The translations under genes and the position numbers were made by a program. From contig CAVTHO010000008.1 of assembly GCA_963734545.1 (NCBI GenBank), positions 320,001 to 384,000 on the forward strand: DNA of 64,000 bases, in the 5' to 3' direction. Position 1 is the first letter of the stretch. Each line of letters begins with the position of its first letter. The stretch is from an uncultured Spirochaetota bacterium (GTDB taxonomy: Bacteria; Spirochaetota; Spirochaetia; SZUA-6; Fen-1364). Of the stretch, positions 7,666 through 58,059 are shown piece after piece. The notes under the pieces are model-generated. The model was given only the letters and a program-made list of their open reading frames with translations. It ran no database searches and was not told the origin of the DNA.

Positions 7666-9295
7666 ATGAGAAGGTTCGTGGTATTCGCATGTGTCATCGC
7701 TGTCCTCTGTCTGGGAGCGGCTGGCGCGGGGTGGGCCCAGATGATCAGCGGCTTCCCGACGACCAGCCAGCAGGAAGCGGATACGGCCCAGGCCGCCTTC
7801 GATAAGGCTGACAAAGGCAATCCCGATCCCGCCTGGAAAGGGGAAAAGTTCACCATCGGGGTGTACTCGGCGGGCCAGCGCGGCGCCATCTCGGGCCCGT
7901 GCTATTTCTGGAGAAACAAGTTCGAGGAGTTGACGGGGGCCACGTACGACATCGTGGAGATCCCTTTCGCCGAAATGAGAGAGAAGGTATTCACGGACAT
8001 GCAGACAGGGACCGGGCAGGTACGACATCCTCATCAACTGCTCCACCTTCTACGGCGACTACATTGCCAACGATTGGATCCTCCCCCTGGATAAATACTT
8101 CAGCGATCCGAGAATGCCGAAGTGGGACCGGGATTCGATCTCTCCCGCGGTCGCCAGCCTTTACAAGTGGGGCAACCACTGGTATGGGAGCAACAACGAC
8201 CACGACGCCCAGGTCCTGTATTTCCGCAAGGACATCATCGGTGACCCGAAGTGGCAGGCAGCGTTCAAGAAGGAAGTCGGACACGCCATGCCGGTGAAGA
8301 TGGACACCTGGGACGATGTGTACGAGATCTGCAAGTTCTTCAACGGGAAGGACTGGAACGGCGACGGCAAGCCTGACCACGGAATCTCGCTGCACCTGAA
8401 GGTCGGCGGCCAGGGTTTCTTCCATTTCATGGCTCTTTCCGCTCCTTACGTGGTCATCCCGTACCCCGGCAAGCCCATCACAAAGGTTGACCGGTACCAC
8501 AATGTGTACTGGTTCGACCCGGTGACCATGGAGCCTCTCATCAACTCTCCCGGTCACGTGGCAGCCCTCGAGATGCTCATCAAGCTGTCGAAAACCGGTA
8601 CCCCGGCCATGTGGGGCTGGAGCCTCGGCGAAGCATGGGCTGACTTCCTCTCGGGCAAAGCCATTGCAACGTTCTCCTGGGGGGACGTCGGGTCGCTTGC
8701 GGAAGACCCCACGCAGTCAGTGATCACGGGCAAGCTGGGAGCGCGCGGAATACCCGGTACCAGGTTCCCCTATGACATGCAGCAGAAGAAGTTCCTGAAG
8801 CTCGACAAGCCGAACATGGTCGGCAACCAGGTAGGATGCTCGTGGCACCCGGTGCTTTCGAAGTTTTCGAAGAATCCTGACCTGGCCTACTATTGGATGG
8901 CGTGGCAGGCAACGCCGGCCATCAACCACTGGAACGTGTACATGGGCTGGACCGGAGTCGATCCCGGAACCACGTACGACTGGTTCCCGCCGTACGGCAC
9001 GGCAACGGTGAAGGAGTACGTGGACGGAGGGTACAACGCGGACGACGCCAAGGCGTTCATCAACTCCTTCCAGGACAACTTCTACAACTACCCGATCTTC
9101 CAGAACTACATGCGCATCCCCGGCACCTCCGAAATGGACGAAATCTGGGACGTGCACCTGTCCGAGGCCATCACCGGCCAGGTCAGCGCCAAGGTCGCGC
9201 TGGACAGGACCGCTGCGGACTGGAAGCGCATCATCAATGACATAGGCAAGGCAGAGTCGCTGAAGCTCTACCAGGAGTCCATCGGATACAAGTAG
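7666..9295 (+). CDS. Sugar ABC transporter substrate-binding protein (frameshift near 8020, probably a sequencing error)
   Basis: Signal peptide. ORFs 7666-8094 and 8114-9295 join when one G is removed near 8020, giving ...TGQYDILINCSTF.... SBP motifs LYFRKDI, TWDDVYEICKFF and AKVALD. Confidence 0.85.
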
Positions 9296-49338: not shown

Positions 49339-50022
49339 TCAGGTGTGCGGCTGATCCGAGGAGGCCGGCGCGGTGACCGGTGTCGATTTGGCGAGTGCCG
49401 CGGTGAGTGCGTCATGGAAACTCTGAACCTGCGTCGTCGTCAGATCGAATGTCTTGTACGACGTCATGCGATTGCCGTACAGGTTGGTCACGGTGATGGG
49501 GAAAACCGTCTTGAAGGATTTCCCGTCATTGGTCACCGAGCAGATGACGATGAACGTGAGGTCCCTGAAGGGTCGGTACTTGTCGTTTCCCTCCGTCATG
49601 TCGAGGGTGCCCGAGTACAGCTCGAAATTGAACATTTTCGAGGGTGAAAGTGATTTGGGATCCATCGCGATGAACTGTTCGATCGCGGTCAGGAACTTCC
49701 TGCCCTGGTCGACGCTCAAAGAGGCTGTTTCACTCAAGTCGTAGTCCTTGACCGTTCCCTGCGCCTTGGACCCGAACCCGCCCTTGCCGCGCTGCGTGAA
49801 GAGCAGCATCTGCGCGTCTCCGCTCTTGTACGTTTCCCGGGAATAGAACACGCCGAGCATCGAGGCGTCCAGATCCACCTCGCTGACGAGCTCGATGTTG
49901 GAGGAAATGGCCCGCTCGCCGCGGGTTTCAGGGGCGCGAGACTGGTAGACGGAATTGCCGGCAGTGGCGCACGACGACAGGACCAGAACGCCGGCGGAGA
50001 GGATCACGAGCAAGACCTTCAT
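49339..50022 (-). CDS. Hypothetical lipoprotein
   Basis: MKVLLVILSAGVLVLSS-C lipobox; AAGGAG RBS. Confidence 0.75.
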   Translation of the reverse strand: MKVLLVILSAGVLVLSSCATAGNSVYQSRAPETRGERAISSNIELVSEVDLDASMLGVFYSRETYKSGDAQMLLFTQRGKGGFGSKAQGTVKDYDLSETASLSVDQGRKFLTAIEQFIAMDPKSLSPSKMFNFELYSGTLDMTEGNDKYRPFRDLTFIVICSVTNDGKSFKTVFPITVTNLYGNRMTSYKTFDLTTTQVQSFHDALTAALAKSTPVTAPASSDQPHT

Positions 50023-50127
50023 ACATTCGCTCCTTTTGGTTTTTTTGTATCACAGCGTGATACAGCGGGGACATTACCGCAAATTCCGGGGCTTGGTCAA
50101 CACGCGCGGCGGGTCTATACTCCCGCG

Positions 50128-51301
50128 ATGCGTGCGGCGGGGATCAGCGTGCTCATCTATCGCGGTGACAGCCGGCGCATGACCGAACTCGAATCCGGCA
50201 GCGTGGAGCTGATCGTCACCTCGCCCCCGTACTGGCAGATAAAGGATTACGGTGTGCCCGGGCAGATCGGGCACGGCCAGGCACTGCACGCATACCTCCG
50301 GGACCTGTCGCTCGTGTGGGGAGAGTGCTTCCGCGTCGCGCGGGAGGGCGGCAAGGCTGTGCGTGAACATCGGGGACCAGTTTGCCCGCGCCAGCCTCTA
50401 CGGCCGCTACAGGGTCATCCCGCTGCACGCGGAGGTGATCTGCCAGTGCGCGGCCATGGGGTTCGACTACATGGGCTCGATCATCTGGCGAAAGAAAACA
50501 ACGATGCACACCTCGGGCGGGGCAACGGTGATGGGCTCATATCCTCATCCGCCCAACGGCATAGTCGAGATCGACTTCGAGTACATCCTCCTCTTCAAGA
50601 AACCCGGGACACCGAAGAAGAAGGAAGCGGCCTTGAAGAAGAGCGCTGCCATGAGCCGCGACGAATGGAAGAGCTGGTTCTCCGGCCATTGGGAGCTCGG
50701 CGGGGCGCGAAAAAAAGGTCACGAAGCTCCTTTTCCGGAGGAGATTCCGCGCAGACTGATACGCATGTTCAGCTTCCCCGGCGACACGGTGCTCGACCCG
50801 TTCCTGGGAACGGGCACGACGGCCGCGGTGGCGAGGGACCTGGGCAGGAATGCGATCGGCTACGAAATCAATGCCGAGTTCGTCCGCCTGGCCCTGGAGA
50901 GGCTTCATCCGGATGCCGTGTGCCGGGACACACGGCAGGCCGGCTCCCCCCGCGCGCGCGGTGCCTGGAAACCGAGGATACCGGACCTGGTCCCCGCCGA
51001 GGGAGGAAAAGCGCCGCCCCCCGGCCCGAAGCTCCATACCGTTGTTTCGGTGGCGCAGGATTGCTCGCTCGTGCTCGATTCCGGTCTGCGCGTGGTCCTT
51101 CTGGACCTGCTGGTTGCAGATCAGGCGGCGGCGCTCTCCTATCTGAAGCAGAGGGTGCTGAAGAAGAAGGTCTTCCTCCTGGACGCCCGGCCTGACGGAG
51201 ATTCCGTGGTACGGGCGCGCGTGGTGCTCAGGAACAGGATATCGATAAATGCCCAGCTCGTGAAATCGGGCGCCGCGACCAGGGTTACGGGAAAGGGGTG
51301 A
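50128..51301 (+). CDS. Beta-class DNA methyltransferase (probably N4-cytosine) with a C-terminal SNase-like domain (frameshift near 50355)
   Basis: IVTSPPY, then HEAPFPEEIP and VLDPFLGTGTT; the ORFs join when one base is removed. C-terminal ~90 aa ends INAQLVKSGAA. Confidence 0.85.
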
Positions 51302-51831
51302 TCGCAATGGTGCACGGAATCGGGGACAAGATCCCCCGGGTGAAGGACGCGATCTTCACGGCATGGAACGCCGAAATCGCGGGAGAGGTCACCCTGGGGA
51401 GAGAGACGAGCGTGTGGTTCAGCGCGACGATACGCGCCGACATTGCGCCGATCACGGTGGGCCGGGGATCGAATATCCAGGACGGCGCCACCGTCCACGT
51501 CGATACCGGGCTCCCCTGCACCATCGGACAAGGCGTCACAGTGGGACATAACGCTGTCCTGCATGGCTGCACCGTGGGAGACGACTGCCTCATCGGAATG
51601 GGCGCCGTGATTCTGAGCGGCGCGGTAATCGGAAAGGAAAGCATCGTCGGGGCGGCTGCCCTCGTCACCGAGGGCAAGGTGTTCCCTGCGCGATCCCTCC
51701 TGGTGGGAAGCCCTGCAAAAGCGGTCAAGGCGGTTGACGACGCAATGCTGGAAAAGGTCCGGGCGAACGCGCGCGTGTATCTCGGCCTGGCGCGCCAGGC
51801 GTCGAAAGAGTACCGCGAGGTGAAGAAGTGA
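51298..51831 (+). CDS. Gamma carbonic anhydrase family protein
   Basis: SVWFSATIRAD, SNIQDGATVH, TVGHNAVLHGC; hexapeptide repeats. Confidence 0.92.
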   Translation: MIAMVHGIGDKIPRVKDAIFTAWNAEIAGEVTLGRETSVWFSATIRADIAPITVGRGSNIQDGATVHVDTGLPCTIGQGVTVGHNAVLHGCTVGDDCLIGMGAVILSGAVIGKESIVGAAALVTEGKVFPARSLLVGSPAKAVKAVDDAMLEKVRANARVYLGLARQASKEYREVKK

Positions 51832-51844
51832 GATGACGGGAACG

Positions 51845-51869
51845 CGCCAGCCCGTGAAGAGGGCTGGCG
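51845..51869. terminator. Hairpin between convergent genes
   Basis: 9-bp stem CGCCAGCCC/GGGCTGGCG; no clear U-tract. Confidence 0.5.
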
Positions 51870-51884
51870 GGAGCTCGGAACCTG

Positions 51885-52424
51885 CTACTTGAACAGAACG
51901 GTGAAACGCGCGTTCACGTAGAGAAGAAAACCGAAGTTGTTCATGTTGTCGAAGGGAGCCAGGGCGATGGCCCCGCCGCTGAGCCGGAACCAGTCGTTGA
52001 CCTTGAAGCCGACATCGATCTGAGGAACGACCCAGGTCCAGCTGTTGTCGAGCAGCTGGTTCCCCAGGCCGAATGCGAAGAAGAAAAATCCGCCGAAGTC
52101 ACCGCGGATCACCACGGGATTCAGTTCTATCTCAATGAACGCGTTGGGCCACAAAACGTTTTCGACGATGAATGTCACGGCCTTGGCACCCACTCCGAAA
52201 CGTATGGGGCCTTCCCCGAACTGGTACGTTGCCTCGACCATGGGAAGGATGATCAGGTACTGGCCGATATCTGTACCTCCCGATATGCCCAGGTCTCCGA
52301 ATTTGATGCCTGCGTAGACCGGCCAGGCGACATCGAAATCGAGCCTGAACTGCGCGCCCGCGCTGAAGGCCACCGCGCACAACAGGACCGCAACCACAAC
52401 CATGACAATGAGCCGCCTCTTCAT
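51885..52424 (-). CDS. Hypothetical exported protein, probable small outer-membrane beta-barrel
   Basis: Signal peptide ending AGA-Q; aromatic amphipathic strands; GGAGG RBS. Confidence 0.7.
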   Translation of the reverse strand: MKRRLIVMVVVAVLLCAVAFSAGAQFRLDFDVAWPVYAGIKFGDLGISGGTDIGQYLIILPMVEATYQFGEGPIRFGVGAKAVTFIVENVLWPNAFIEIELNPVVIRGDFGGFFFFAFGLGNQLLDNSWTWVVPQIDVGFKVNDWFRLSGGAIALAPFDNMNNFGFLLYVNARFTVLFK

Positions 52425-52524
52425 CTGATCCTCCTGGGCGCTGTCGTGCGGTACGTTTCCCAACAGGAATGATATCACACTTTGCCGCGCACGGCGTGAT
52501 GATATCTCACCGTGGGGCCGGGTG

Positions 52525-52568
52525 ATTGTCACGTTATTGTCAACGCTGGCTGCTTTCCATTGTCAACA
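52525..52568. repeat. Three-box ATTGTCAAC site, copy A (over the gene's stop codon)
   Basis: Boxes at 52525 (ATTGTCA), 52536 and 52559. Confidence 0.85.
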
Positions 52569-53572
52569 ACATGACGGATGACCGCCTCGATACCGGGCAG
52601 CACGTTCACCCGTTTCAAGGCCACACCCGGGTGCGCGTGCGCGAAAACCCGGAAAATCTCGTCGGCGAACCCTTGTCCTATCGATCGTACTCCTGCAAAG
52701 TCGAGAACGACCTCCCGAAATTGATCGAGCCGGGCGAGGAGCCGCTTTGCCTCCGAGCGCGAAACATACTCACCCGCGTAGAATCGCACGGTCACGAGGC
52801 TTCGCTCGAACCGGAACTCGAACTCCTCAGGCGCGAAAGAAGAGAACACATCCGTGAGCTTTCGCCGCGCCGAACGGCTCACACGCAGGGACACTTCGGT
52901 GCCGATGAGATACGCGCGCACGTTCACAAAAGTGTCTTTCTTCAGCGTGTCAAAGACGAGCTCGATCCTGTGGGACCGAAGGGCAAACCGGTCGCACGCC
53001 TTTGAGGTGAAGAAAATCCCTTCTCCGGCGTGCCGTTCCGGCATTGACGTGGCCTTGCCCTTGAGCAGCTCACCGATCGCTGCCTCCTCTTCGGCGAGGC
53101 GATGACGCTCGGCAACCGAGGTGAAAACACCCACTCCCTGATCCCTGATCCGGGCGTCCACCTGGCGGTCCGCCAGCGTGACGTCCACCGTGCACGTGGG
53201 TGAATGCGAGTGCTCGACGGCGTTGTTGAGCATCTCGGTGAAAGCATATGCGAAAATCTCGTATGCCGCGGCAGACAGGGAACGCCTGAGCGCGAGGCGC
53301 AGAGCCACGTCCGCGAGCACCTCGTCTTCCATCAGTCCGTCGATCCGGTACTTCCGATGAAATGGCTGTGCCGGCGGGGCCGCCTTGCCGCGGCGGTCGG
53401 GAAGGCGGTACTGGACCCCCCGGGTCCTTCCCGTGCGGGTCAACAGCCCCTCCTCCAGGAGCCGGACGAGATGCCGGTGCGCGGCCTGCCGTGACACGCC
53501 CAGGACTGCAGCGATCTGGGCGCCGGAGAGGGAGTGGCGCGAGCTCAGGGTCTTCAGAATCCGGCTCCTCAT
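52529..53572 (-). CDS. HTH + HATPase-like + STAS-like (DUF4325-type) protein
   Basis: HTH IAAVLGVSRQAAHRHL; FTEMLNNAVEHS, IRDQGVG, HAGEGIFFTS; SRSEAKRL...VVLDFAGVRSIGQGFADEIFRVF. Confidence 0.85.
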   Translation of the reverse strand: MRSRILKTLSSRHSLSGAQIAAVLGVSRQAAHRHLVRLLEEGLLTRTGRTRGVQYRLPDRRGKAAPPAQPFHRKYRIDGLMEDEVLADVALRLALRRSLSAAAYEIFAYAFTEMLNNAVEHSHSPTCTVDVTLADRQVDARIRDQGVGVFTSVAERHRLAEEEAAIGELLKGKATSMPERHAGEGIFFTSKACDRFALRSHRIELVFDTLKKDTFVNVRAYLIGTEVSLRVSRSARRKLTDVFSSFAPEEFEFRFERSLVTVRFYAGEYVSRSEAKRLLARLDQFREVVLDFAGVRSIGQGFADEIFRVFAHAHPGVALKRVNVLPGIEAVIRHVVDNGKQPALTIT

Positions 53573-53594
53573 GTCCACCGTCTGATCATGTGCT

Positions 53595-53638
53595 ATTGTC
53601 AACCTATTGTCAACACATCAGACAATTTATTGTCAACA
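53595..53638. repeat. Three-box ATTGTCAAC site, copy B (upstream of the gene)
   Basis: Boxes at 53595, 53606 and 53629; same 11/23-bp spacing as copy A. Confidence 0.85.
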
Positions 53639-53673
53639 GACTGCTTCCGAGACGCAGCGGGGGGGACCCTTTG

Positions 53674-54177
53674 TCAGCTCCGCCGGCCGAGGGCGCGCAC
53701 GAGCATGGGCCACTCGCGCTCGAAAAGGGGGGTGAGGGTTCCCGTGCCGACGAGGGATCCCACCTGTGCCAGGCTGAAGAACCGGCCTTCCTCGATTTCA
53801 TCCGGGGCGGGACGGATGTCTCCGCGCCACGTGAGAGAGAAGCATTGCGCGTATTCCGATTCGAAGCTGCCTTCGAAGAGAAAAGCATAGAGGCGCTTTG
53901 CGCCCGCCGCGTCGATGGCCAGCTCTTCGCGGCCTTCCCGAAGCAGTGCGGCCGCCACATCCTCACCGGCGTTCACGTGACCTCCCACGGAAGTGTCCCA
54001 GAGCCCGGGGTTGGTGTCCTTTCTCACCGATCGCTTCTGCAAGTAGAGCCGCCCCTGCGCGTCGAATACGTGCAGGTGCACCACGAGATGGATGAGGAGC
54101 GGATTGCCGTGGCACTCCTCCCTGGATGCCGTCCCGACGGGCGTGCCGTTCCTGTCCACGAGCTGGAACATTTCCAT
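53674..54177 (-). CDS. NUDIX hydrolase (Idi-like)
   Basis: HLVVHLHVFD..GRLYLQKRS..KD..PGLWDTSVGGHVNAGE...REGREEL. Confidence 0.88.
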   Translation of the reverse strand: MEMFQLVDRNGTPVGTASREECHGNPLLIHLVVHLHVFDAQGRLYLQKRSVRKDTNPGLWDTSVGGHVNAGEDVAAALLREGREELAIDAAGAKRLYAFLFEGSFESEYAQCFSLTWRGDIRPAPDEIEEGRFFSLAQVGSLVGTGTLTPLFEREWPMLVRALGRRS

Positions 54178-56465: not shown

Positions 56466-57271
56466 CTGCCGTCCCTCGTGGGGGAGCGTAGCACGGCTCC
56501 CCTGGTTCGAGAACCCAGTCTCCTGATCACCTGCGTGGATGACCACCCTTCGACGTGGGGAAGAAGGATGACGCGGCCTCCCCCGCCTTCCACTATCCGC
56601 TTCCCCACCACTCCCGAGAGCGAATACTCCGAGCCCTTGGCCAGAATGTCCGGCCTCACCACGCGCAGCAGCGCGCGCGGATCCGCCTGGCCGAAGATCA
56701 CGCACACGTCCACGCCGCGCACGGCAGCGACGAGCTCCGCGCGCGCGAATTGCGGCACCACGGGGCGCAGCCTTCCCTTGAGCGACCTCGCGGACTCGTC
56801 GCTGTTTATGCCCACGACAAGGGCATCCCCCCGGGCGCGCGCCGCCTGCAGCAGCCGCAGGTGCCCGACATGGAACAGGTCGAACACGCCATTGGTGAAC
56901 ACGATGCGCTTTCCTGCTTTCCGCATGGCGGCGCATCGCCGCGCCGCGAGCTCGAAATCGGAAATCACGCGGGAGCGCGCGGCAGCAGCCTGCACGCGGC
57001 GGATCGCGCGGAGAAGCTCCTTCGGAGTGGCAGCGGCGATGGTCCCGCAAAAAGCTCGGCGCACGTCATCCGGGATCCGCCGGGAACGCGCATGGAAGAC
57101 GAGCCAGGACGCCGACAGCTCAACGTCGAGTGAGTCGGCGAGCTTCCGCCAGGCGTCGAGAGAGCACGCCCGTCCCGCCGTGAGCGGGGAATCGATAAGT
57201 GAGTACTCCCCCGCGCAGGAATCGAGGGACGCGCCGGCGTCCCAGCCGGAAGTGAAGATCGCACGAATCAT
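56453..57271 (-). CDS. Cytidylyltransferase family protein (RfaE2/HldE adenylyltransferase-like) with N-terminal extension
   Basis: FTNGVFDLFHVGH, VVGINSDES...KG..RP, PDILAKGSEY, WSST. Confidence 0.85.
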   Translation of the reverse strand: MIRAIFTSGWDAGASLDSCAGEYSLIDSPLTAGRACSLDAWRKLADSLDVELSASWLVFHARSRRIPDDVRRAFCGTIAAATPKELLRAIRRVQAAAARSRVISDFELAARRCAAMRKAGKRIVFTNGVFDLFHVGHLRLLQAARARGDALVVGINSDESARSLKGRLRPVVPQFARAELVAAVRGVDVCVIFGQADPRALLRVVRPDILAKGSEYSLSGVVGKRIVEGGGGRVILLPHVEGWSSTQVIRRLGSRTRGAVLRSPTRDGRWRD

Positions 57272-58059
57272 GGGGCCGCGCGCACCACGGCGATCGAGTC
57301 GAGACGAAAGGTGCGCCGCTCATTCCTGAGAGAACAGAATGCCACGACGCCGACCGACCCGCCGACGCACGAGAACGCGCGCGGCTGAATGGTCCGCACG
57401 GTCTTCTCTCCCCGCGCGCTGCGGTAGGTGATTTCCACTTCGGCTCCCGCGGCGATGGCCTGCTGGAGCAGGGACGCGGTGCGCGCCAGGCGCGGCGCGT
57501 GCGTGGTGAAATCCAGCGGCTCCCCGCAGGAACGGGTGAGCTTCTCCCAGCCGCCTGCCCGGAGACACTCCAGATAGAGGAGCCGGCAGGCGTGCGCATC
57601 CGCAAGCGCCCTGTGCGCGCCCGAAACCCTGATTGAGAGGTCACGCACCAGGTTCGAGAGGCTGTAGCTGAAGCGCCCGGGAAATGCCCGACGCGCCAGG
57701 ATGCGGGTATCCAGCACGGGCCCCTGCGGCGCCTCCAGCCCCGCGGCCATTATGTCCACGGAAAGGAAGCCCACGTCGAATACGGCATTGTGCGCCACCG
57801 GGGTTCCCTTCGACACGAGTGCGAGGAATGGGGGGAGGGCGGCGCCGACCGCGGGCATTCCCCGCAGCATGCTGTCCGAGATGCCGTTGATCTCCCGGGC
57901 CTCCTGCGGCATGGGGATGCCGGGATCCACGAGCTGGTCAAAGGTTTCCAGCACGTCCTCTCCCCGGAACAGGACGGCCCCCAGCTCGACGATCCGATCC
58001 ACGCCGGGAATCAGGCCCGTGGTCTCCACGTCGAAGGCAGCAACGAGTGGCAGCGGCAC
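57268..58059 (-). CDS. DEDDh 3'-5' exonuclease fused to a WYL domain
   Basis: FDVETTG, AHNAVFD, HRALAD; C-terminal ITYRSARGEKTVRTIQP...AFCSLRNERRTFRLDSI. Confidence 0.88.
   Translation of the reverse strand: MPLPLVAAFDVETTGLIPGVDRIVELGAVLFRGEDVLETFDQLVDPGIPMPQEAREINGISDSMLRGMPAVGAALPPFLALVSKGTPVAHNAVFDVGFLSVDIMAAGLEAPQGPVLDTRILARRAFPGRFSYSLSNLVRDLSIRVSGAHRALADAHACRLLYLECLRAGGWEKLTRSCGEPLDFTTHAPRLARTASLLQQAIAAGAEVEITYRSARGEKTVRTIQPRAFSCVGGSVGVVAFCSLRNERRTFRLDSIAVVRAAP

Follow-up and report, generated by a model that had tools for sequence, protein, structure and literature searches.

In phage lambda, the tripartite operators OR and OL lie about 1-2.4 kb apart and bracket cI-rexAB; one of them overlaps the gene's own promoter, and looping between the two tunes autoregulation. 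In P1 and F, direct repeats (iterons) are present on both sides of the initiator gene, the upstream set over the promoter for autorepression and the downstream set for pairing or titration. Promoter-bearing direct repeats also flank the coding part of elements that leave solo long terminal repeats (LTRs) or are bounded by attL and attR, and recombination leaves one copy. The lac operators cooperate via a DNA loop, and LacI at O3 roadblocks transcription of lacI, giving a truncated transcript and an SsrA-tagged product (PMC3711431). C.Kpn2I binds within its own coding region as an elongation roadblock, a mode that its authors suggest may be widespread (PMC6237814). In this work, we analyzed a stretch of 64,000 nucleotides (nt) from an uncultured Spirochaetota bacterium (contig CAVTHO010000008.1, positions 320,001 to 384,000), hereafter the window. 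It carries one gene coding for a winged helix-turn-helix (wHTH) domain, a SpoIIAB/RsbW-like GHKL ATPase and a STAS-like domain, bracketed by two direct copies of an array of three 9-bp boxes. We consider it probable that both arrays are operators of the encoded wHTH, combining autorepression at the promoter with an auxiliary operator at the 3' end that acts by looping, as a roadblock or in both ways. Mechanisms of this kind are known from lac, lambda, C proteins and iterons, whereas the family, its box code, its predicted leaderless promoter-operator conserved across phyla, the two-ended layout and the solo alleles are undescribed.

The exact box ATTGTCAAC was found five times in the window (52536, 52559, 53595, 53606 and 53629) against an expectation of 0.23, and none of 100 dinucleotide-preserving shuffles gave five. 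A degenerate box at 52525, ATTGTCACG (ATTGTCA), is the sixth of the two sets. Start-to-start spacing was 11 and 23 bp in both sets, which lie 1070 bp apart, and the 9-bp boxes are the only sequence that the two arrays of the window have in common. The box positions, spacings and distance given by an initial annotation of the window, made from the sequence alone, were thus borne out by the exact-match count and the shuffles. It had also described the downstream copy as overlapping the last codons and the stop codon, and TGA indeed lies at 52531-52529, inside the 52525 box. The inverted GACAAT/ATTGTC pair that it reported in the upstream copy is present at 53621-53634 but was not conserved in orthologs. 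The scan of the whole genome for arrays that it had proposed returned 17 exact boxes in the 5.14-Mb assembly, compared with 3 for a reversed control. No second cluster of exact boxes was found anywhere in that assembly; the remaining 12 boxes were singletons in coding sequence or ordinary promoters. Elsewhere in the same genome (C6:379127), the sequence GTTGACAAT-TG-GGTGACAAG, two boxes at 11-bp spacing of which the second is degenerate, precedes a small gene beginning MRFITVRDLRTTPAQVWKLL, which we take to be antitoxin-like.

The layout is shared in part with each of the regulators above. As in lambda, two predicted three-site operators bracket a gene and one lies over its own promoter. The lambda sites are, however, 17-bp pseudo-palindromes bound by dimers, with outward promoters at both operators, whereas here direct repeats make up the arrays, no promoter accompanies the second one, and the protein is not of the CI type. 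The likeness to lac is a predicted operator at the end of the regulator's own gene and a second cluster of sites on the same DNA, here 1070 bp away. Unlike the three direct boxes, LacI sites are single palindromes; the lacI promoter is not an operator, and O3 serves the adjoining lac promoter, whereas the 3' array has no conserved neighbour. C.Kpn2I is also an autoregulator with a site in its own gene, and C-protein units are small, mobile and self-regulated as well. It differs in having one site, in being a small HTH protein without ATPase or STAS domains, and in belonging to a multi-gene restriction-modification system.

The upstream array coincides with a promoter. When 51800-53800 was scanned for consensus promoters, one site alone was obtained: TTGACA of box 2, a 17-nt spacer and CATGAT, matching at 10 of 12 positions. 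Where boxes 1 and 2 formed a pair, we asked whether the box-2 TTGACA was followed, 16-18 nt on, by a hexamer that has A as its second and T as its sixth letter. Such a -10-like hexamer followed 27 of 31 upstream arrays compared with 2 of 19 downstream arrays; a single locus (L019) showed the contrast as TATAAT upstream and TCAATT downstream. In G+C-rich loci the upstream spacers averaged 74% A+T, compared with 38% for the whole loci (n=20), and the A+T-rich spacer between box 1 and box 2 may be an UP element. With box 2 as the -35 hexamer and box 3 in the promoter spacer, a regulator site lies over the core promoter in the manner of lac and lambda, and the covariation of boxes and recognition helices described below argues that this promoter-overlapping site belongs to the encoded regulator. 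In the loci read, 6-7 nt separated the -10 from the start codon and a Shine-Dalgarno sequence was absent, from which we predict that the messenger RNA (mRNA) of the gene is leaderless or near-leaderless. In the window, GTG at 53578, 6 nt past the -10, is more likely to be the start codon than ATG at 53572 or TTG at 53602, because it aligns with ATGGAC of the orthologs.

The type of box was associated with the recognition helix of the encoded protein. Proteins with the helix SRQA(V/A)(H/N)xH had at least two TTGACAA boxes upstream in 32 of 48 loci, and those with SRQY had at least two TTTACAA boxes in 7 of 10. For the helix SR(A/V/T)Y, the upstream box was (G/T)T(T/A)(G/T)ACAACT, present at least twice in 8 of 21 loci. 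The geometry of the SR(A/V/T)Y class is two direct boxes, a -10 and one inverted box, with a normal leader; it is repeated at the stop codon in L021, L096, L113, L122 and L098, and partly in L121. TTGACAA-N4-TTGACA had 20 matches in 61 related genomes (6 with a reversed control); of these 20, 14 were at the flanks of this gene, and the other 6 were at ribosomal RNA or ordinary promoters. Because the gene is the sole constant companion of the arrays, its own wHTH is the protein predicted to read them, and this is the main evidence for that assignment.

The presence of TTGACA inside every box also suggested another explanation, in which the boxes are not bound by the encoded HTH but are clustered -35-like elements or other host-factor sites that recruit or trap RNA polymerase and are conserved for expression in any host. 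The A+T-rich, UP-element-like spacer and a weak match of the HTH to sigma-70 region 4 (E 0.0089, below cut-off) agree with it. We nevertheless regard it as very improbable, since in subfamilies with other helices the boxes TTTACAAT and GTAGACAACTT are poor -35 hexamers, yet arrays are found at both ends. The downstream arrays lack a -10, and the constant association of the arrays with this gene also argues against it.

The downstream array is placed over the end of the gene. In the window, its first box lies in coding sequence and its third contains the stop codon, and in all 18 two-array loci measured the start of the first box (box 1') preceded the end of the stop codon, by 11 to 59 nt. Since the stop shifts relative to the kept boxes, we conclude that the 3' array is selected as DNA, with the C-terminal tail as a by-product. 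Both arrays had the same distance from box 1 to box 2 in 17 of 18 loci, four of which had 24/24 rather than 23/23. With locus-specific boxes and at most 2 mismatches per box, a cognate tandem pair was detected at the 3' end in 16 of 58 loci, one of which (L062) looks spurious. None of the 58 loci had such a pair in any of three control regions, two inside the gene and one far downstream, and another 27 loci were without an upstream tandem pair by the same criterion. A predicted site within the regulator's coding region or at its end is the arrangement of roadblock autoregulation, and no credible intrinsic terminator was found after the gene.

The initial annotation had offered, as one of two options, an in-phase operator bound by the gene's own HTH at both ends, allowing looping or control of the downstream beta-barrel gene. 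Predicted own-HTH operators at both ends are the part of that option that our results support best. Helical phase was not conserved: the inter-array distance varied from 1046 to 1084 bp, with remainders modulo 10.5 spread from 0 to 9.5. General control of a downstream gene did not hold up either, as downstream neighbours vary and are often convergent and the downstream array lacks a -10.

A related explanation is that the downstream array is the promoter or operator of the next gene, which codes for a signal-peptide protein (51885-52424) and would be controlled by the HTH protein, so that the bracketing would amount to a pair of regulated promoters side by side. In the window and in a related genome (G002), this small exported protein is co-oriented and begins 100 bp past the array, and in G014 the same gene is divergent and 27 bp from the other array, so that an array is beside its promoter in all three genomes. 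In another locus (L075), a co-oriented gene begins 8 nt past box 3'. This explanation has, in our view, only a slim chance of being correct, given how rarely a -10-like hexamer follows the downstream arrays and how the ortholog neighbours differ; the exported-protein gene also has its own TGnTATCAT, conserved whatever the orientation of the cassette.

The two arrays were conserved together among orthologs. Of 61 related genomes, 20 had full-length relatives, among them 9 of the 20 other genomes belonging to the genus, and both arrays were found in all 11 order-level relatives with a scorable 3' end (L009-L019, 100-46% identity). In L010-L019 (86-46% identity; upstream side of L018 masked), the upstream sequence on the gene strand was GTTGACAAT-N14-GTTGACAAT-N2-GTTGACAAT, and the 3' end was GTTGACAAT-N14-GTTGACAAT-N2-(G/T)TGAC(A/G)AT. 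Information content in the ortholog alignment was high in the boxes and about zero in the spacers and directly outside the outer boxes. When the window locus was compared with other loci by blastn, the alignment ran from outer box to outer box only (L009 1433-1436 to 2549-2554). The flanks were unrelated among loci except in G002, where the downstream flank was common, and G014, where both were (85-89% identity). The coordinates of the block are collected in Table 1.

Table 1. Features of the array-gene-array block, in positions of the window
Feature	Position	Strand	Basis or remark
Upstream array box 1 (GTTGACAAT on gene strand)	53629..53637	-	Exact match, conserved in orthologs; about -58 from start
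A+T-rich 14-bp spacer, box 1 to box 2	53615..53628	-	Putative UP-element position
Upstream array box 2	53606..53614	-	TTGACA 53613-53608 = -35 hexamer
Upstream array box 3	53595..53603	-	In promoter spacer, between -35 and -10
-10-like hexamer CATGAT	53585..53590	-	Consensus promoter scan; orthologs CAnnAT up to TATAAT at the same place
wHTH + SpoIIAB/RsbW-like GHKL ATPase + STAS-like (DUF4325) gene	52529..53578	-	Pfam, AlphaFold2 model, ortholog alignment
Downstream array box 1'	52559..52567	-	Within coding sequence: codons V-D-N after conserved H-V
Downstream array box 2'	52536..52544	-	Exact match, conserved in orthologs
Downstream degenerate box 3' (CGTGACAAT on gene strand)	52525..52533	-	Holds stop codon; orthologs (G/T)TGAC(A/G)AT
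Conserved array-gene-array block	52519..53637	-	blastn against orthologous loci; unit kept, moved, inverted

Within one genus, the block was found in many contexts. Seven of 20 same-genus loci have the hexapeptide-transferase gene at most 70 bp from the NUDIX 3' end and lack both the HTH gene and the small exported protein; the two such empty junctions that were read in the window's genus had no array. These gene- and array-free junctions indicate that the cassette and its exported neighbour are an insertion in the window lineage. In the sister species G014 (L010, G014:C18), the block, 82% identical, is inverted between the small exported-protein gene and the NUDIX gene, with breakpoints 20-85 bp beyond the outer boxes. 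Breakpoints beside the arrays are only weak evidence for a dedicated mechanism, because the tight gene packing tolerates none elsewhere. Two assembly variants of one locus in G016 (L159, at the end of C39, and L016, on C275) have a common 3' array and split 3 nt past box 3'; one has 58 bp before a converging transketolase-like gene, and the other has 457 bp with an apparent small-protein gene, presumably GYD-like. One genome (L160, G006:C4, ~7936-8213) contains a degraded HTH gene, residues 1-37 and 59-119, truncated past the N box and with neither array.

Several features were observed in the surroundings of the block. The sequence ATGATATC(A/T)CAC occurs twice, 30 bp apart (52469-52480 and 52499-52510), before the small exported-protein gene; the copy nearer the gene fits a TGnTATCAT extended -10 and is kept in G014. 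The pair is probably the gene's own promoter together with a local duplication. Between an AhpC-like gene and the hexapeptide-transferase gene (49339-51307), a weak N6_N4 DNA-methylase match was obtained (E 9e-4), and the same interval in G002 (L152 5697-7857) carries a full methylase (2e-44) followed by an unassigned open reading frame (ORF) of 324 residues. A restriction-modification unit may have decayed here, within a variable island. The gene at 57268-58059 codes for a fusion of an RNase_T-type exonuclease domain (2.5e-30) with a C-terminal WYL domain (2.1e-12).

Arrays were also found without the gene. A scan of metagenomes with the strict three-box pattern returned at least 140 stretches, and 77 loci were read, giving 78 distinct arrays. 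An array preceded a family gene in 29 cases (and 7 more with the other side unscorable) and ended one in 12 (4 more with the other side unscorable). Thirteen arrays were solo, with no family gene on either side over at least 400 bp scorable each way, which is 13 of the 54 fully scorable arrays. In another 13, no gene was seen with one side scorable, an unreliable class in which L274 does carry the gene. The solo arrays had no -10 or start after them and no coding end before them, and their neighbours were unrelated housekeeping genes. One of them (L258) is a single-array, gene-less allele of a filled locus (L236): its left flank matches the upstream flank of L236 at 92% identity up to 3 nt from the array, and its right flank matches the downstream flank of L236, also at 92%, from 4 nt beyond the array. 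A second single-array allele of this locus, L332, is more diverged, and L237 (solo) and L259 (filled) appear to be a further pair, with flank identity of about 69%. The two arrays of L236 are 96% identical over 48 nt. In young filled cassettes generally, the arrays are 84-98% identical over 42-55 nt including the spacers, while the spacers differ between loci. The gene plus one array is therefore a unit of gain or loss, by a dedicated mechanism or by plain repeat-mediated deletion. In addition, one metagenome contig (L264/L265) carries a complete cassette and, about 1.65 kb past its 3' array, a solo array oriented alike, with a convergent 204-residue ORF between the arrays and an NYN-domain gene starting 232 bp after the solo array.

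The second option of the initial annotation, that the arrays are recombination sites, gained from these alleles in metagenomes but was not shown for the window. Its proposed search for empty sites was likewise positive in the metagenome relatives (L258 and L332 against L236), while the junctions in the window's genus had no array, so that a repeat-bounded cassette with presence and absence alleles was found in the metagenome relatives only. Developed further, this option would make the arrays dedicated att-like sites at which a circle of gene and one array integrates into or excises from a solo array in the Campbell manner, catalyzed by an unknown host enzyme or by the encoded HTH-ATPase. The bracketing would then correspond to attL and attR, and an operator role may coexist. 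The filled and empty alleles with exactly one array left, the share of solo arrays in unrelated contexts and the near-identity of arrays in young cassettes all agree with it, as do the many contexts within one genus, the inverted block of G014 and the G016 split beside box 3'. Furthermore, the array spacer of L258 and L332 diverges far more than their flanks. However, deletion between direct repeats of 40-55 nt requires no dedicated enzyme, and the protein has no recognisable nuclease or recombinase domain. No integrase, transposase or recombinase family was found within 4-8 kb of 9 cassettes or among the window ORFs scanned (at least 110 residues, greedy non-overlapping set; 9, 10 and 40 proteins in successive scans), in agreement with the initial annotation, which had seen no recombinase in the window. 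The window arrays are alike in the 9-bp boxes alone, the empty junctions of its genus have no array, direct repeats leave the inversion unexplained, and tight gene packing would place tolerated breakpoints beside the arrays anyway. We judge att-like sites to be unlikely.

A stronger form of this idea, which we rate as a long shot, is a new minimal mobile cassette, in which the gene and one array would enter and leave chromosomal solo arrays used as landing pads, and the encoded protein would synapse the arrays and promote or control their exchange with no classical recombinase. The single array left at the same site in L258 and L332 is also reminiscent of solo LTRs and attL/attR. Unlike those elements, the cassette has neither reverse transcriptase nor integrase, its repeats consist of operator-like arrays of 41-55 nt, and outer host repeats are present in some loci.

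These outer direct repeats of neighbouring host sequence (22-167 nt, 77-94%) were observed beyond the arrays, on either side of the cassette, in L055, L083, L096, L097, L118, L119, L121, L220 and L236; those of L118 and L055 are the adjacent gene's 3' end. They may mark the original insertion, either as long target duplications or through Campbell-type insertion of a circle carrying the flank of a former host. In the window clade, no target-site duplications were seen immediately beyond the outer boxes. On one contig, two cassettes separated by about 17 kb (L052 and L053) each have heptamer-like tandem repeats (CTACGCC/TTACGCT type) on both sides.

Known classes of mobile module were considered and rejected. 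An integron gene cassette is not matched, as direct 9-bp boxes stand at both ends rather than an attC hairpin and no integrase is near the 9 cassettes or in the window; in the distant relatives with outer repeats, these look like duplicated 3' ends of neighbouring genes and not attC hairpins. A Xer site has two 11-bp arms around a 6-bp spacer, and pdif modules are flanked by inverted sites; here three direct repeats at 11/23 bp stand in direct orientation. An insertion sequence or transposon was rejected on account of the direct-repeat ends and a gene that has no transposase family match.

The domain reading of the initial annotation (HTH-HATPase-STAS) was upheld by Pfam, which matched DUF4325 (STAS-like, 1.8e-12), HATPase_c_2 (1.9e-08) and several winged-helix families at residues 1-60. 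An AlphaFold2 model from an alignment of 92 sequences had a mean predicted local distance difference test (pLDDT) score of 86. The best PDB matches of its central domain by Foldseek were SpoIIAB (1til/1tid), with a template modelling (TM) score on the target of 0.70-0.75; matches to RsbW had 0.73-0.82, the highest being 6m36 (0.82). In the 92 sequences, the Bergerat-fold residues E113, N116, N117, G146, G148, G183 and G185 were invariant and D144 nearly so, so that the N, G1 and G2 motif residues of GHKL ATPases of the SpoIIAB/RsbW type are kept. In its central fold, its ATP-binding motifs and a STAS-like domain next in the same chain, the protein resembles the partner-switching pairs of SpoIIAB/RsbW with the STAS proteins SpoIIAA/RsbV. 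Unlike these, it fuses all parts together with a DNA-binding wHTH, and it has no known sigma partner.

Searches for a described function returned little. PADLOC and NCBIfam gave HTH-level matches alone (Csa3, CasR) and sub-threshold HTH or kinase matches alone, respectively, for the window protein. PHROGs had no match to it, and its viral relatives belong to phrog_3364 (unknown function). Sequence search of solved structures gave weak kinase or HTH matches alone (E 1e-4 or worse). No defence, Rep, recombinase, transposase or nuclease family matched the protein in Pfam, PADLOC, NCBIfam, PHROGs or the structure comparison. At the locus, Rfam gave a single sub-threshold chance match (ArcZ, 20 bits against a gathering score of 66). 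In a literature search, we found no functional description of DUF4325, the mentions examined being table entries, and no paper combining 'STAS-like' with 'HATPase'.

These searches bear on the likeness to P1 and F, in which direct repeats in helical register likewise flank the gene and those upstream cover its promoter. The arrays could accordingly be iterons of a small integrated replicon with the gene as initiator, as in P1 (incC-repA-incA) or F, and 37% of members in one Atlas cluster of relatives carry a RepL label. We give this explanation hardly any credence and rejected an iteron replicon of the P1/F type. There was no Rep family match in Pfam or NCBIfam, the core of the protein is an anti-sigma-kinase-like ATPase, the gene is chromosomal and single-copy among housekeeping genes, and tblastn against plasmid (72,556 plasmids) and phage record collections gave no match.

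The family is widespread and phylogenetically scattered. A pattern scan of species genomes yielded 546 confirmed relatives, of which the best 80 were kept. In a quick maximum-likelihood tree of 92 proteins, the protein phylogeny did not track taxonomy. Nineteen of the 23 members with a 3' array fell within one clade of 23 (Shimodaira-Hasegawa-like approximate likelihood ratio test, 85), composed of Verrucomicrobiota, Lentisphaerota, Nitrospirota, Thermodesulfobacteriota and the window's group. The presence of a 3' array required 8 changes on the tree, and at least 5 of the changes were forced by strongly supported branches. The four clade members with no 3' array had two upstream arrays (L068), six upstream boxes (L056) or one 3' box left (L059 and L070). 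In the sister clade there were no 3' arrays, and extra upstream arrays were stacked in L057, L060, L067 and L069. One of these, from an uncultured gammaproteobacterium (L060), has seven exact TTGACAAT boxes in 140 bp upstream, as repeated array units. Because a second array recurs near the promoter array, either upstream or at the 3' end, as if to meet a recurring need, cooperative binding between arrays is favoured as their common function. In three box classes the 3' array sits strictly on the stop codon, which points to a further role where the transcript ends. Among viral contigs of IMG/VR, 52 relatives were found (28-42% identity), located beside an integrase, between an HNH endonuclease and an endolysin, or before terminase genes; these varied positions fit an autonomous accessory gene.

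Several observations weigh against the operator interpretation. The own genome has no further arrays, so that the regulator would have no target besides itself. The association between helix and box is incomplete, with fewer than two boxes by the patterns used in 13 of 48 SRQA and 11 of 21 SR(A/V/T)Y loci, and it was drawn from related, non-independent sequences. As the box holds a canonical -35 hexamer, its upstream conservation may partly reflect contact with sigma-70. A GTG start on a leaderless mRNA is poorly used by some bacteria, and the start in the window is likely GTG. Solo arrays of three perfect boxes are unexpected for a purely cis-acting autoregulatory role, unless they are recent deletion scars or used in trans. 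Class A loci had the downstream array in 19 of 49 cases, class C loci in 3 of 21 (by regular expression) and class B loci in 0 of 11; being absent from most of the family, it must have a function that is dispensable or replaceable. Finally, a roadblock cannot account for the relatives whose second array lies upstream.

On balance, we retain the arrays as predicted operators of the encoded protein, for which we propose the following mechanism. The upstream array would be joined to a strong sigma-70-type promoter, with box 1 two helical turns upstream behind the A+T-rich stretch, and protein bound to the boxes would occlude RNA polymerase, resulting in negative autoregulation. The downstream array might raise the occupancy of the promoter array via protein-protein contacts over a loop of about 1.07 kb. 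Alternatively or in addition, it might stall the elongating polymerase at the end of the gene, so that the gene's own transcript is truncated or terminated and its neighbours are insulated. The array-gene-array block would thus be a self-contained expression unit that has spread horizontally across many phyla and into prophages. As direct repeats, which in some relatives are almost the same over 42-55 nt, the arrays could recombine with each other and so remove or add the gene and one array, leaving single-array, gene-less alleles.

For a family this widespread, the sequence now yields a predicted operator, a predicted promoter, a predicted leaderless start and box codes for the subfamilies. 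The block would be a portable unit independent of its host: its promoter is built from consensus parts, translation would not require a ribosome-binding site, and a predicted repressor site stands at either end. This layout may explain how the gene functions after transfer between phyla. Second arrays at the 3' end in some members and stacked upstream in others are a natural experiment on the loop, roadblock and insulator roles of auxiliary operators. Were the gene in fact the minimal mobile cassette considered above, the same sites would be recombination ends as well as promoter and operator. Regulatory repeats can also bound the gain and loss of a gene, as shown by the solo arrays and by the alleles with and without it.

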